This document shows positions 5,858 to 59,162 of a stretch of DNA of 64,000 bases, piece by piece. This stretch comes from Escherichia coli. Its GTDB lineage: Bacteria; Pseudomonadota; Gammaproteobacteria; Enterobacterales; Enterobacteriaceae. The stretch lies in assembly GCF_022846255.1 (NCBI RefSeq), contig NZ_AP025682.1; one strand, given 5' to 3'. Position numbers and translations under genes: made by a program. Every line of letters begins with the position of its first letter. Positions within the stretch are counted from its first letter, which is position 1. The notes under the pieces were generated by a model that was given only the letters and a program-made list of their open reading frames with translations, was not told the DNA's origin and did not search any database.

Positions 5858-6553
5858 TCAGCAATCCTCAATAATCAGATACACCGCTTTCACCGGACCA
5901 TGAACCCCGACGACTTTGATAAGCTCAATGTCCGCCGTTGAACTGGGACCACTGATGATGTTAATACATGACGGCATTCGTTCACCGGCCTGCGCTTTCT
6001 GATGCAATTTTTCTGCGAGTTGCGCTACACGCGGCAGGATTGTGCTTTTACGCAGGATAAAAAGAGAAGATTCCGGGAGCAGGCTCAATGAACGCCCGCG
6101 CCCGGCGGCGGAAAAAAGAACCACGCCTCCCGATTCGGTTAAACCATATTCAGCATATACGACGCCCACTTTAGCCTGCTCTGCTTGTGATATGTTCTCA
6201 ATACCTTTCGCCGGATCCCAAACAACGGCATTGCATTCCTGCTGCAAACGTTCGCTAATCCCCAATTCCTCCAGCCTCGTGTCACCACTAATCACGACCG
6301 ACTGATCTCCCAGCTCTTTACACAGACGTATTGCAGCTTCTGCCGCCTTCGCCTCGCTGGTCAGTTCACAGCGCGTCAACATAACATCGCTGGCAAACTG
6401 GATAAACGCGTCACAGCGCTGCTGTTGGGTAAGTTGGGTAAGCCGCTCGTTAGCATAGTTGTTAAGCGGCGCATCTTCTGCTTGCGGTTCAAGTCGCAGC
6501 GGGCGACCCAGTGCCTGAGCAACGTTATTCAAAAATTCGCTCCGATTATCCAT
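5858..6553 (-). CDS. ykgG: LutC-like protein YkgG (LUD domain)
   Basis: 231 aa from internal ATG (MDNRSEFLNNVAQALG...) with AGGAG SD; start overlaps ykgF stop (ATGGATAA). Confidence 0.8.
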   Translation of the reverse strand: MDNRSEFLNNVAQALGRPLRLEPQAEDAPLNNYANERLTQLTQQQRCDAFIQFASDVMLTRCELTSEAKAAEAAIRLCKELGDQSVVISGDTRLEELGISERLQQECNAVVWDPAKGIENISQAEQAKVGVVYAEYGLTESGGVVLFSAAGRGRSLSLLPESSLFILRKSTILPRVAQLAEKLHQKAQAGERMPSCINIISGPSSTADIELIKVVGVHGPVKAVYLIIEDC

Positions 6554-7973
6554 TCTTTTTCTCCTGCGCCTGATGTTTCTTAAACCAACTACGGAAACTC
6601 TCTCCGTCAGCTTCAGGAAGATCGCGTGCTTCCATCCAGTCGCTAATCGCGCCAAATTTGAGTGGTGTTTTGCCGCCATTGATAAACCAGCTTGCCGCAT
6701 GAGCACCAGCCATCATCCCAACTTTCCACAATCCTGGATGACTATTGGCATAAGCGAACATTTTTATCGCCCGTTGCTCTGCTTTTGCGGTGATCCCTTT
6801 TTCAGCCATCACCCGACGATGACGCAAAATCAGTTTTGACAGCGGAATACGCACCGGACACACGCTGTCACAAGCGGTGCATAAAGAGCAGGCGTAGGGT
6901 AAATCTTTAAAATCTTTATAGCCGCCAAGTAACGGGGAAATCACCGCACCAATTGGCCCTGGATAAATAGAGCCATATCCATGACCGCCAATATGGCGAT
7001 ATGCCGGACAAGTATTCATACAAGCCCCGCAGCGAATACAGCGCAGCACATCCCGAAATTCAGAGGCCAGCACCTCAGAACGCCCGTTATCGACAATAAC
7101 CAGATGAAACTCTTCAGGACCATCAACGTGCCCCGCTTCGCGCGGTCCTGTCAGCCAGGTGTTGTATCCCGTCAAACGTGCACCAACGGCACTGCGCGCC
7201 AGCATGGTGATCAATACATCTACCTCTGCAAACGTGGGGGCAATACGCTCCATTCCCATCACTGCAATATGCGTTTTAGGCAGCGTGGTACACATTCGCG
7301 CATTACCTTCATTGGTCACCAGGCATACCGAACCGGTCTCTGCCACCGCGAAATTACAGCCGGTAATACCTATTTCAGCACTGAGGAAATCTTCGCGGAT
7401 TTTTTGCCGAATGAATAAGGTCATCGCTTCAGGCGTTTCCGGCCCCTCATAGCCCAGACGTTCGTGTAGCACTCGACGGATCTGATGGCGATCTTTATGA
7501 ATTGCCGGGACCACAACATGAGAGGGCGGATCTTGATCCAGCTGGAGAATGTATTCACCCAGATCGGTTTCAATCACCTGAATGCCAGCATCCTGCAACA
7601 CATGATTGACACCAATCTCTTCGGTCACCATCGATTTAGATTTCACCACCTTCCGGGCATTTTTGCGTTGGGCAACCTGTAAAATGTAGCGGGTAGCGTC
7701 TTCTTTGGTTTTTGCAAAATAGACGTGACCGCCGTTTTGCGTCACTTTTTCTGAGAGCTGGTACAGATAAGCGTCGAGATTACTCAGAACATGATCACGT
7801 ATCTGGGCGGCCCGATCGCGCCACTCCTCCCAGTGCCCCAATTCATCGACCATTTTTTGCCGATTTGCCCCAATACGCTGCTGCGCGTTTGCCACCGCTT
7901 TGCGCATGATCGGATCTTCAATTTGCTGACGGATGCGTGTCTTAAAATCTGTATTACTGGTTTTGATCGACAT
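6546..7973 (-). CDS. ykgF: LutB-like iron-sulfur oxidoreductase YkgF
   Basis: 475 aa; two 4Fe-4S ferredoxin Cys clusters (CIRCGACMNTCP, CSLCTACDSVCP). Confidence 0.85.
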   Translation of the reverse strand: MSIKTSNTDFKTRIRQQIEDPIMRKAVANAQQRIGANRQKMVDELGHWEEWRDRAAQIRDHVLSNLDAYLYQLSEKVTQNGGHVYFAKTKEDATRYILQVAQRKNARKVVKSKSMVTEEIGVNHVLQDAGIQVIETDLGEYILQLDQDPPSHVVVPAIHKDRHQIRRVLHERLGYEGPETPEAMTLFIRQKIREDFLSAEIGITGCNFAVAETGSVCLVTNEGNARMCTTLPKTHIAVMGMERIAPTFAEVDVLITMLARSAVGARLTGYNTWLTGPREAGHVDGPEEFHLVIVDNGRSEVLASEFRDVLRCIRCGACMNTCPAYRHIGGHGYGSIYPGPIGAVISPLLGGYKDFKDLPYACSLCTACDSVCPVRIPLSKLILRHRRVMAEKGITAKAEQRAIKMFAYANSHPGLWKVGMMAGAHAASWFINGGKTPLKFGAISDWMEARDLPEADGESFRSWFKKHQAQEKKNG

Positions 7974-55678: not shown

Positions 55679-55812
55679 TGATGACTCCGGATAACGATGT
55701 CAGGTTATTGGCAAAAGGCGTGCCAATAATTTTTATGTGAATAATCAATAAATTGAAAAAGGGGCGGAAATGGTGTTTCCGGTCTGGCGGAAAAAAGCCT
55801 GCCGCTGAAAGC

Positions 55813-55873
<61 letters not shown>

Positions 55874-55883
55874 AAGTCCGCCA

Positions 55884-56798
55884 TTACTGCAGCAGGCTGG
55901 AAACCATGCTGGACATGCTGTTGGACTGTTTCAGCATGGTGATGCCGGTCTGCATCAGCACCTGCTGTTTAGTCATGTTGGACGCTTCCGTCGCGTAGTC
56001 GGTATCCATAATGTTACCGATAGCGACTTCGGTGTTGTCCTGCATACTGGTCAGGTTATTAGCGGTGTCGTTCAGACGGTTGATAGACGCCCCCAGCTTG
56101 GACTGGATCTGCGAAACATCATCCATCGCGGTAGAAATGCTGGTGATCATCTGGTTAGCCGAGCCAGACGCAGTCAGCTCAGTACCGCCAGAAACGCCTG
56201 CGGTGCCAGTGGTGTCAGCCTGATCCGCACTGAAGGAGTTGCTGATAGCAGAAAGATCCGTCACCAGGGTATTCAGCTGGCTTGAAATATTCACGGTCAT
56301 GGTGTCGGAAGATTCCGCGCCCACCTGGAAAGTTACTGCGCTCTGGAACAGACCGTCAGTACCGGTGTTGCTGGTACCGGAAACACCGAACAGGTTGGTG
56401 CCGCCGTAAGTGGTGTTTTGCAGCATGTCAGACATCTGCTGACCCAGTTCATCGTATTCGTCCTGCATCGCCTGCAGATCGTCGTCGCTGTAGGTGCCGT
56501 TCGCTGCCTGAGTTGACAGGTCTTTCATACGACCCAGCACATCAGACATTTCGTCGAACATGCTGTCAGCGGTTTGCAGCATCGCGGTGGCATCATTGAT
56601 GTTGCTCAGCGCCACACCCATACCGCTGGACTGTGCTGTCAGACGGTTAGCAATTTGTTTGCCTGCGGCGTCATCGGCAGAAGAGTTAATCCGGTTACCC
56701 GTTGCCAGGCGTTCCATAGATGTAGACAGAGAAGAGCTGCTTTTACTGATTGCATTAACGGCGGCCATTGAGGCGTTATTGGTGTTAATAGATAACAT
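55884..56798 (-). CDS. lafA: Lateral flagellin
   Basis: 304 aa from MLSINTNNASMAAVNAISKSSSSL... to ...MLKQSNSMSSMVSSLLQ with AAGGAG SD (track ORF extends 22 codons upstream). Confidence 0.85.
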   Translation of the reverse strand: MLSINTNNASMAAVNAISKSSSSLSTSMERLATGNRINSSADDAAGKQIANRLTAQSSGMGVALSNINDATAMLQTADSMFDEMSDVLGRMKDLSTQAANGTYSDDDLQAMQDEYDELGQQMSDMLQNTTYGGTNLFGVSGTSNTGTDGLFQSAVTFQVGAESSDTMTVNISSQLNTLVTDLSAISNSFSADQADTTGTAGVSGGTELTASGSANQMITSISTAMDDVSQIQSKLGASINRLNDTANNLTSMQDNTEVAIGNIMDTDYATEASNMTKQQVLMQTGITMLKQSNSMSSMVSSLLQ

Positions 56799-57232
56799 GA
56801 TACTGCTCCTTGGGATTAATCGTTTTCGTTTCGATACCCTGTAAAAACGACACCTCAGGAGCAAACTTAAAATCGCCGTTAAAATTTTTTCGCCACGTAT
56901 TATCCGATGCCACTTTTAGCTAAAAAAAGCAGAGGTTAAATTCAGATAAAAAGATTATTAGCAATATCTGCCACATGGCCAGGAATCAAAATATGTCTTT
57001 ATCAAATGCTTGATATAGTTAAGATTGTCATCAATTAACGCGTTTTCTTCTCAATGTACTGATGCCAAAATTTACATTGCGTTGCAAATAGTACACGTTT
57101 AGCTATTGTGCCTGTCCTGTCATTTCGTTACATTTCCACGCCATATAGTGATTAAGAATAATCCTATTACCATAAAATATTAATTATCACGCAGAAAAAT
57201 CATCTTCTCAGGGACGTATAAGACTGTGCTTT

Positions 57233-58126
57233 ATGCAAAGCACTATCAGGAAACATTTATCCCTTGCTAAGGTAAACTCAACTATGAGTATTATTATCAA
57301 CAACTGGCGGATGGACCCGTCGCTTAATGCCTTAATACATTGCGAAACGGGTGAAACACGTCGTCTCGGCGAATACCATTTTATTTTGCTGGAAACATTA
57401 GCAAAAAATGCCGATGTGGTTTTATCGCGATCTTATTTATGTGCCGAAGTATGGAAGAACCGCATTGTCGGCGGTAACAGCCTGCCGACGGCGATCCACG
57501 CTCTGCGCGTTGCCATTGATGATGACGGCAAGCAACAGAACATTATTAAAACCATCCCGAAAAAAGGGTACCTGTGCAATAAAGAGTATGTGTCTTTGCC
57601 GGAGTCATCGCCTGCAGAAGCGCTGATTATTACCGACCAGATACAAGATACAGCCCCAGAAGAGATATCTTCGACAACACCGCCTGTACCTGTTAGAAAA
57701 AAACATAAAGGACTGATGGGGTTAGCGTTGGCCGCAGCTGTTATATTTATTGGCTCGACCGTGGGGTATTCACACTTGAAAAGTACACCTGACGCCCCGC
57801 AACTGGTAAAAGAGTCAATTAACAGTCCAAGAATAAAAATATTTCATTTAACTTCTGCTGGAGAAAATAATTCCGTACCGTTACTATCACAAACCCTCGC
57901 ACCAGGAAAAGACAAACTCGATAATTTATTGTCAGCGCATAATATGACAATGACAACCTATTATAAATATGTTCGTAACCGACTGGAGAGTGATATTGTT
58001 CTGCGCAACCAGTGCAATGGTAGCTGGCAATTAACCTTTAATGTGGAAGGTTGGCAGAACAGCGATATTAATAGCGCGATGTATCAGAATTTAGAGAAGT
58101 TGTTAAATACTGTGCAGAAATGCTGA
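57233..58126 (+). CDS. lafZ: ToxR/CadC-like membrane-anchored transcriptional regulator
   Basis: 297 aa; N-terminal OmpR/PhoB-type winged helix, one TM segment (GLMGLALAAAVIFIGSTV), periplasmic C-terminus; divergent from lafA. Confidence 0.65.
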   Translation: MQSTIRKHLSLAKVNSTMSIIINNWRMDPSLNALIHCETGETRRLGEYHFILLETLAKNADVVLSRSYLCAEVWKNRIVGGNSLPTAIHALRVAIDDDGKQQNIIKTIPKKGYLCNKEYVSLPESSPAEALIITDQIQDTAPEEISSTTPPVPVRKKHKGLMGLALAAAVIFIGSTVGYSHLKSTPDAPQLVKESINSPRIKIFHLTSAGENNSVPLLSQTLAPGKDKLDNLLSAHNMTMTTYYKYVRNRLESDIVLRNQCNGSWQLTFNVEGWQNSDINSAMYQNLEKLLNTVQKC

Positions 58127-58141
58127 TGAGTGCCAATATAT

Positions 58142-58178
58142 GCCGGATGCGACGCTAAACGCGTCTTATCCGGCCTAC
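58142..58178. repeat. REP (palindromic unit)
   Basis: GCCGGATGCGACGCTAAACGCGTCTTATCCGGCCTAC, canonical REP between lafZ and lafW. Confidence 0.7.
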
Positions 58179-58184
58179 CGATAA

Positions 58185-59162
58185 TTACCCCAATAAATTC
58201 CTCACCGTCTGGCTGGAAATTCGCGCCTGACCGTTCACAGCCTGCAATAAAACCTGATAGTTATGATTGGCGCTATCAAGCACACCGCCGAGATTTTCCG
58301 ATGCCTGCACCGCGTTTTCCGTTTGCGGGAAGCGCGACATGCCGTCGATCAGCTGCCGCGCTTTTTCCTGCTGCACCGCCATCTTCGCGCGCTGCTGATT
58401 AATGTTTTCTAACGTCTGAGAAATCCCCGCCCCACCCTGTTGCAGGCTTTGCGCTAAGCGGTCCGCCTGTGACGGTTCGGCAAAGGTTTTTAGCGGCATA
58501 AACGCTGATTTATCACCATCGGTACGCACGCTTAAGGTTCGTTCGATATGGGGCCACTGTTTTTCAGTGGTGGAGAAGCTGATGCCATCGGCGTGTTGAT
58601 GCATCTGAACGCCCACGCGGCGCAGAGCGTTGGTCAGCCGCGTCTGATACTGCGCGGCGCTGTCATCCTCAGACAGCATCACCGCCGAAAGCTGAGTCTG
58701 CCGCCCGTCAGAGACGCTGAACATGCGCGTTCCCGGCGTGGGATTGTGTACCAGATTCGTCAGATCCGGCGAGTGAAAAGTCACCCGCGCTTCCCCCTGC
58801 AACACTGGCTGCAACTGGCGGTCCACCGCGCCGCCGGAAAGCGCGGTGCGTTTGTCCAGCATCTGCATCAGCGCTGAACTCTGCGCCTGCCCGCCCTTAC
58901 GCTGGCTGTGACGGTAATCGAGCAACTGCTGTTCCAGTTGCCCGAGATAGTGATCCGCCTGCTGCAACGTGGTGAGCTGATCGTTAAGCTGCACACTGTA
59001 ACGCTGCGGGCGAGTGGTAATCAGCGGCGAGGCCGGATATTCACTCGCCGTCGCCGGGAGTTTTTGCCGCACCGCCTGAGTGGGCGCAACGGTTGACGAC
59101 GATACCGCAGCGCTATGCGCGCCGCCGGTGGCGAGTGATGAAGATGTAAGTCCGACCTGCAT
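58185..59162 (-). CDS. lafW: Flag-2 protein of unknown function
   Basis: 325 aa, Ser/Gln-rich, no recognisable domain; placed by synteny between lfgL and lafZ. Confidence 0.5.
   Translation of the reverse strand: MQVGLTSSSLATGGAHSAAVSSSTVAPTQAVRQKLPATASEYPASPLITTRPQRYSVQLNDQLTTLQQADHYLGQLEQQLLDYRHSQRKGGQAQSSALMQMLDKRTALSGGAVDRQLQPVLQGEARVTFHSPDLTNLVHNPTPGTRMFSVSDGRQTQLSAVMLSEDDSAAQYQTRLTNALRRVGVQMHQHADGISFSTTEKQWPHIERTLSVRTDGDKSAFMPLKTFAEPSQADRLAQSLQQGGAGISQTLENINQQRAKMAVQQEKARQLIDGMSRFPQTENAVQASENLGGVLDSANHNYQVLLQAVNGQARISSQTVRNLLG

Follow-up and report, generated by a model that had tools for sequence, protein, structure and literature searches.

The lateral flagellar (Flag-2) gene lafZ of Escherichia coli lies on the plus strand near the end of a 64,000-nucleotide stretch of contig NZ_AP025682.1 (hereafter the window) and is predicted, from sequence and structural models, to encode a membrane-tethered transcription factor of the ToxR/VtrA class. 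The best explanation overall, to which we assign a rough probability of 0.6, is that LafZ has lost the partner protein with which it is encoded in most other genera and still works alone on the control region that separates lafZ from the divergent flagellin gene lafA. The gene itself is not new. A preliminary description made from the DNA letters read it correctly as a ToxR/CadC-type regulator inside a flagellar cluster without recognising the name lafZ; what is added here is incremental, comprising a corrected start, a tie between the VtrA/ToxR co-component class and Flag-2, a reinterpretation of a gene regarded as horizontally acquired cargo, and the orphan status of LafZ in Escherichia.

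Identity and extent of lafZ

Among 5426 complete E. coli genomes, 1278 carry a match to the region 56600-58400, with an identity of 95-99% in 1194 cases, and the identity of the locus to Flag-2 is put at 97-98%. The matching loci are always chromosomal and annotated as lafA, a regulator and a hook-associated protein. In strain SMS-3-5 the gene order is lafU-motA-sigma factor-fliL-fliK-(hypothetical)-fliS-fliD-lafA, then the regulator, then (hypothetical)-flgL-flgK, which is Flag-2 cluster 3 plus part of cluster 2. The resulting order of lafU to lafA, lafZ and lafW-lfgL agrees with the published lafWZABCDEFSTU cluster (PMC6993521), with lafZ placed in cluster 3 between a divergent lafA (minus strand, 55884..56798, lateral flagellin) and a convergent lafW (minus strand, 58185..59162, a Flag-2-specific putative hook-associated protein; PMC6993521). 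At 90% identity the window protein also clusters with NCBI HAM6310456.1, a "lateral flagellar transmembrane regulator LafZ". The name dates from 2005, when lafZ of E. coli 042 Flag-2 was described as a "putative transmembrane regulator" (Ren et al. 2005, as cited in PMC6993521 and PMC7526173), and three genes, lafZ among them, have been reported as exclusive to Flag-2 (PMC6993521, PMC7526173). The 042 gene is the same gene in the same slot between lafA and lafW and carries the same description, but 042 has a toxin-antitoxin pair between lafW and lafZ (PMC3032704) where the window has only a repetitive extragenic palindromic (REP) element. Because both name and description are published and cluster mates are already named LafZ, the identification counts as known.

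The open reading frame of 297 amino acids at 57233..58126 given in the preliminary description is real, but its first codon is not the start of the gene. The lafZ coding sequence is 57284..58126 on the plus strand (280 amino acids plus stop), starting at M18 of the longer frame. Homologues all open with MSII(I/V)NNWRMD, the RefSeq start in SMS-3-5 is the same, and the alignment of ToxR with LafZ begins at residue 3; the identical 280-residue protein is found on 283 public E. coli contigs. The 17 upstream codons (plus strand, 57233..57283) are not conserved, are missing from most homologues and are probably 5' untranslated region rather than coding sequence. It follows that the AT-rich region across which lafZ diverges from the flagellin gene is 485 base pairs (bp) long (56799..57283) and not the 434 bp first proposed. 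Its G+C content is 35%, compared with 42.6% in lafZ, 53% in lafA and 59% in lafW. Within the Flag-2 portion of the window lafZ is the sole plus-strand gene, as had been stated.

Domain architecture and regulator class

The only Pfam match is Trans_reg_C, an OmpR/PhoB-type winged helix at amino acids 42-114 of the 297-residue frame (plus strand, 57356..57574; E=1.5e-13, with 51 bits where the cut-off is 26), which begins near residue 25 of the 280 and is not accompanied by a receiver domain. Among solved structures, sequence comparison of this domain ranks ToxR of Vibrio cholerae (8b4b, E=3e-8) and CadC of E. coli (5ju7, E=2e-6) before all response regulators, and Foldseek against PDB returns ToxR-DNA complexes first (template-modelling scores 0.84-0.88, 33-35% identity) and CadC next. 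The domain is followed by a cytoplasmic linker (plus strand, 57617..57679), predicted to be disordered (predicted local distance difference test, pLDDT, <50 for residues 112-132) and variable in sequence and length across homologue alignments, with ratios of non-synonymous to synonymous substitution (dN/dS) of 0.19-0.44. A single transmembrane helix, GLMGLALAAAVIFIGSTVGYS (amino acids 160-180 of the longer frame; plus strand, 57710..57772), is supported by the model, in which the membrane segment forms one long helix (AlphaFold), and by Kyte-Doolittle hydropathy, in which GLMGLALAAAVIFIGSTVG (amino acids 160-178) scores 1.98 and no other segment exceeds 1.6. The motif RKKHK stands on the cytoplasmic side of the helix, so the predicted topology places the N-terminus in the cytoplasm and the last ~117 residues in the periplasm (plus strand, 57773..58123). 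In the AlphaFold model of LafZ, built from 49 family members, pLDDT is 87.7 overall and >90 in this C-terminal domain. The winged helix, single membrane helix and periplasmic domain of the preliminary description are thus all borne out by prediction.

The class of the periplasmic domain is indicated by its fold and its cysteines. Pfam gave no match for this domain, and Foldseek with full-length LafZ returned matches to the DNA-binding domain only. The order of elements in the E. coli model, strand-strand-helix-strand-strand-strand-helix, agrees with that common to the periplasmic domains of VtrA and ToxR (Kinch et al., PMC9214523). C244 and C280, the latter being the last residue (codons 58013-58015 and 58121-58123), do not vary among 49 sequences whose identity to the window protein is only 29-66%. 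This mirrors the near-C-terminal disulfide cysteine of the VtrA/ToxR class, and the LafZ disulfide is putative. CadC of E. coli, too, combines a winged helix, a membrane tether and a periplasmic disulfide, and "CadC family" is the name that most annotation pipelines put on the window protein. CadC itself was nevertheless rejected as an identity: the window protein reaches 34 bits with the NCBIfam CadC model, whose cut-off is 400, and there is no full-length match including the large two-subdomain periplasmic sensor. The earlier ToxR/CadC label is therefore refined, with ToxR closest, CadC next and a periplasmic domain predicted to have the VtrA/ToxR fold.

An overlapping partner gene and its loss in Escherichia

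An exhaustive search for representative homologues gave 45 clusters (E-values up to 1e-30), and a scan with one genome per species gave 80 loci across Enterobacterales, 73 of them outside Escherichia and Pseudocitrobacter. In ~60 of these 73, a homologous partner reading frame of ~155 amino acids, strongly hydrophobic at its N-terminus, starts before lafZ has ended (for example at L002 6863-7336, L017 6929-7408 and L085 7001-7447, with ~55 more loci), the overlap being 20-29 nucleotides in 49 loci. This overlapping layout of regulator and partner is that of toxRS, vtrAC, tcpPH and psaEF. The partner family is annotated "hypothetical protein" everywhere, and Pfam finds no domain match in it.

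Since full-length LafZ had matched known structures through its DNA-binding domain only, the periplasmic domain was modelled together with the partner, as a fusion of the Citrobacter braakii LafZ periplasmic domain, a Gly/Ser linker and the partner (40 paired sequences). The fusion model reached a pLDDT of 85.5 and a predicted template-modelling score (pTM) of 0.83, versus a pTM of 0.49 for full-length LafZ, which suggests a defined mutual arrangement. LafZ and its partner are thus predicted to form a complex, as VtrA does with VtrC and ToxR with ToxS; this has no bearing on the partner-less E. coli protein. The top PDB match by Foldseek is VtrC (E=0.03), and the partner is predicted to be a membrane-anchored barrel protein of VtrC/ToxS type. 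On the strength of the overlapping gene and of VtrC as best PDB match, LafZ and its partner are counted as a predicted VtrA/VtrC-type co-component system as defined by Kinch et al. 2022. The term "one-component" used in the preliminary description consequently holds for Escherichia but not elsewhere, most genera having the two-gene system. In a comparative study of Flag-2 the partner slot belongs to "variable region 2" (VR2), whose genes were seen as horizontally acquired cargo, mostly hypothetical.

VtrA/VtrC, the bile-salt receptor of Vibrio parahaemolyticus that controls type III secretion system 2 (T3SS2; PDB 5kev/5kew), shares 6-11% sequence identity; VtrA has no disulfide whereas LafZ has an invariant cysteine pair, VtrA has VtrC whereas window LafZ has no VtrC-like partner, and the context is type III secretion in the one and flagellar in the other. 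The periplasmic domain of Vibrio ToxR, of the ToxR/ToxS pair, has no detectable sequence similarity to that of LafZ, no ToxS-like gene exists in E. coli, and the known ToxR targets ompU, ompT and toxT are unrelated. The cassettes of Kinch et al. 2022 (PsaE/PsaF, YqeI/YqeJ, GrvA/FidL, MarT/FidL and BZ17_3283/3282) follow the same two-gene logic and carry a C-terminal cysteine inside or near the gene overlap, as lafZ and its partner do. That study never mentions flagella or Flag-2 (PMC9214523), and E. coli lafZ would fail its neighbour-gene filter. One of its cassettes, BZ17_3283/3282 of Yersinia pseudotuberculosis, was left with function unassigned and has a regulator periplasmic domain at 235-348 (PMC9214523); the Flag-2 lafZ homologue of Y. 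pseudotuberculosis is exactly 348 amino acids long, with an overlapping partner of 148 amino acids, and from length and gene arrangement the two pairs are probably the same. We note that two tandem lafA flagellin genes stand upstream of lafZ in this Y. pseudotuberculosis locus (L085 2688-5348), and that the Budvicia locus (L050) has three lafA-like matches.

Escherichia and Pseudocitrobacter have lost the partner gene, and a REP element now occupies its slot. No partner reading frame was found in the window, in SMS-3-5 or in the other Escherichia and Pseudocitrobacter loci, and L001 and L005-L011 lack it; no co-oriented partner gene adjoins lafZ in the window, and no Escherichia protein occurs among the best 120 of 174 partner homologues. 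The gap between lafZ and lafW is 58 bp in the window and ~60 bp in the other Escherichia and Pseudocitrobacter loci (307 bp in L005, also without the partner), compared with ~450-540 bp in most partner-carrying loci. Between the convergent lafZ and lafW of the window, 58142..58178 folds into a REP hairpin (free energy -23.6 kcal/mol, z=-4.3) and is the unique exact match to the REP pattern; Rfam gave only REP-like sub-threshold matches, to the REP-derived family naRNA4 (58142-58178 and 55796-55887). REP elements thus stand on both sides of the lafA-lafZ unit, with one or two more in the lafB/lafA gap at 55796-55887.

Despite this loss, purifying selection on the orphan LafZ remains strong in the DNA-binding and the periplasmic domain alike. 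Across the partner-less clade dN/dS is 0.00-0.07 in the DNA-binding domain, 0.08-0.19 in the periplasmic domain and 0.19-1.1 in the linker and membrane helix, and the low values extend to Pseudocitrobacter, where synonymous sites are saturated. These ratios argue that orphan LafZ is maintained rather than decaying. The dominant E. coli allele (2295 cluster members) is intact, as is the copy in the window. We propose tentatively, at slightly under even odds, that the "VR2 cargo" gene is the sensor half of an ancestral LafZ system and that Escherichia and Pseudocitrobacter represent its reduction to a working stand-alone regulator. Lateral-flagellar expression in many enterics would then be tied to a periplasmic small-molecule cue, and the two genera would be an example of a VtrA/ToxR-type regulator functioning without an obligate partner.

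The lafA-lafZ control region and the role of LafZ

The divergent control region (56799..57283) shows, in an alignment covering Escherichia and Pseudocitrobacter, sharp conserved islands within otherwise diverged sequence. A 15-mer, GATTATTAGCAATAT (56953..56967), is identical in both genera and has 1-2 substitutions in Citrobacter and Phytobacter, where the LafZ DNA-binding domain is nearly invariant. A 23-mer, AAAATTTACATTGCGTTGCAAAT (57067..57089), is likewise identical across Escherichia and Pseudocitrobacter despite saturated synonymous sites. The spacing between the two is always 114 bp, and within any one clade the 15-mer and the lafA promoter block are equally far apart in all members. 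On this footprint both are operator or promoter candidates, the 15-mer as an operator and the 23-mer as a promoter or operator of lafZ. The lafA block itself (minus strand, 56824..56872) comprises a leader (56824-56852) and a sigma-28-like -35 element, TTAAGTTT (within 56860-56872), conserved from Escherichia to Citrobacter; the sigma-28-like promoter is inferred from the consensus TAAAGTTT-N11-GCCGATAA, and its -10 match is poor. The exact 15-mer has no second copy in the window or in the rest of Flag-2, and the 23-mer is unique in the window and does not recur elsewhere in Flag-2 (upstream of lafK included, in SMS-3-5 only). With up to 3 mismatches the 15-mer occurs 12 times in the window against 3.15 expected, a count reached in 0 of 100 shuffles, but these loose matches are scattered through unrelated genes and probably reflect a compositional effect. 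Two assignments were rejected: a sigma-54 promoter at the 15-mer, where GG and GC stand two bases too close together, and the ToxR-box pattern TNAAA-N5-TNAAA, which the conserved blocks do not fit on inspection. Searches of the intergenic region for repeats and inverted repeats gave only short pairs at chance level, scanning for sigma-70 promoters yielded weak 9/12 matches, none convincing as a lafZ promoter, and a scan for intrinsic terminators found none.

In the explanation that we favour, orphan LafZ would still be functional alone in Escherichia. It would bind, from the membrane, AT-rich DNA in the 485-bp region, with the 15-mer and 23-mer as candidate sites, and would modulate transcription of lafA, of its own gene or of both, probably by countering silencing of AT-rich DNA. 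With the partner gone, no ligand can act through it, and the activity or stability of LafZ would probably be set by the state of the periplasmic domain (disulfide, pH or proteolysis).

Several points weigh against this explanation. A literature search turned up no experiments on LafZ from any organism, in line with the preliminary description, which accurately gave its signal and targets as unknown. The fold comparison of the periplasmic domain was made with the Citrobacter orthologue and not with the window protein. Some lafZ-partner loci have no adjacent lafA or lie outside flagellar clusters, which weakens a strict link between lafZ and lafA. The sigma-28-like element of lafA and the sigma-54-like promoter of lafB mean that a LafK to LafS cascade may suffice without LafZ. 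In public clusters of E. coli LafZ, about one sequence in five carries a truncation or a frameshift; mutations have often inactivated the Flag-2 locus itself, which is yet to be seen working in E. coli (PMC3032704). Finally, VtrA needs VtrC for its activity and ToxR loses stability when ToxS is missing (PMC4933562, PMC7265457), so partner loss could mean loss of function for LafZ.

The alternative that survives best, although improbable, is that LafZ stands at the top of the Flag-2 hierarchy and activates lafK, which encodes the sigma-54 activator, or another distant promoter, rather than lafA. Its relatives typically switch on a downstream regulator, as ToxR does toxT and VtrA does vtrB (PMC4933562, PMC9214523). 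A sigma-54-type promoter, TGGCACGCCTTTTGCC, lies upstream of lafB (minus strand, 55710-55725), and a perfect one, TGGCACAGCGATTGCT, upstream of lfgB in another locus (L087 32585-32600); as judged from their sequences, both fit LafK-dependent class 2 operons. Together with the sigma-28-like lafA promoter they imply a cascade from LafK to LafS whose input is still to be supplied, and the lfiM-lafK intergenic region is AT-rich too (41% G+C). The same promoters fit the known cascade of lateral flagella from LafK and sigma-54 to sigma-28, to which the role of LafZ would be additional rather than required. Against activation of lafK, neither conserved element recurs upstream of that gene or elsewhere in Flag-2, a comparison made in SMS-3-5 as lafK lies outside the window, and the distance between the 15-mer and the lafA promoter block is, as noted, constant inside a clade.

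Somewhat less probable again is that Escherichia LafZ is a non-functional relic, neither activated nor stabilised since deletion of its partner. The absence of the partner gene, the dependence of VtrA and ToxR on theirs and the lack of a demonstrated function for Flag-2 in E. coli all favour such a relic, as do several independent truncating alleles. An A7 homopolymer just before the membrane helix (plus strand, 57697..57703) is a natural -1 frameshift site and may be a slippage hotspot: a 150-sequence E. coli cluster ends ...RKNIKD*, as predicted from loss of one A, and the product would be a soluble DNA-binding stub without the membrane helix. A C-terminal frameshift removes the last cysteine in 263 E. 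coli sequences, and N-terminal disruptions affect ~230. A relic is hard to reconcile, however, with the low dN/dS seen throughout the partner-less clade (no more than 0.07 for the DNA-binding domain and 0.08-0.19 for the periplasmic one), with retention of both cysteines, with the intact dominant allele and with conservation of the flanking cis elements.

Very unlikely is the suggestion, close to that of the preliminary description, that LafZ is a self-contained one-component sensor of surface contact or viscosity, which it would detect through its periplasmic or membrane parts, and switches lafA on directly: lafZ does diverge from lafA across a conserved control region and does stand alone in E. 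coli, and lateral flagella of Vibrio and Aeromonas are induced on surfaces, but we know of no member of this regulator class that senses mechanical load, the ancestral system consists of two proteins with a lipocalin-like partner, and lafZ-partner pairs occur away from flagellar genes (Erwinia, Pantoea and others). Such a partner binds bile salts in VtrA/VtrC and ToxR/ToxS (PMC4933562, PMC10624426), and the surface-responsive Vibrio and Aeromonas lateral systems have no lafZ, LafZ being reported as unique to enterobacterial Flag-2 (PMC7526173). Mechanical surface sensing by LafZ is accordingly unlikely, and the proposed coupling to surface or viscosity finds no support, since characterised relatives sense chemical or periplasmic cues, namely bile salts, pH and redox (PMC9214523, PMC4933562).

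About one E. coli genome in four has Flag-2, as counted above, as do many enteric pathogens, and no environmental input other than LafZ is obvious in it. As late as 2024 the function and regulation of Flag-2 were called "not fully understood" (PMC11420993). Membership of the VtrA/ToxR class suggests a lipid, bile or pH cue in the genera that keep the partner and disulfide- or proteolysis-dependent control of LafZ in E. coli. Two specific DNA elements, the 15-mer and the 23-mer, are now singled out; the practical gain is modest, as the gene itself is not new.

Some lafZ loci depart from the usual Flag-2 setting. Five of the scanned loci, from Erwinia, Pantoea, Kosakonia and Pluralibacter (L032, L044, L054, L059 and L078, at ~5900-7400), carry lafZ-partner pairs with no flagellar genes within 6 kb, so the cassette is not confined to Flag-2; these pairs may be remnants after Flag-2 loss or independent paralogues. 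Those of Erwinia and Pantoea (L032, L044 and L054) have common non-flagellar neighbours. In a Pseudescherichia-like clade, the place of lafA ahead of the lafZ-partner pair is taken by a TonB-dependent receptor and enterobactin-type genes: L002, L023 and L028 have the order fepA, lafZ-partner, lafW-lfgL, with lafW still adjoining, and L025 has the same upstream genes and no lafW, the flagellar side being entirely lost. As for the rest of the window, synteny with E. coli E7-1N7 suggests that Flag-2 takes up only ~49.5-64 kb. Positions 1-49500 would be ordinary chromosome, with hyxR-hyxAB, ykgEFG, rclRABC, fdeC, the ecp operon and proAB, and further with phoE, crl, pepD, prfH-rtcB, yafNOP and dinB.

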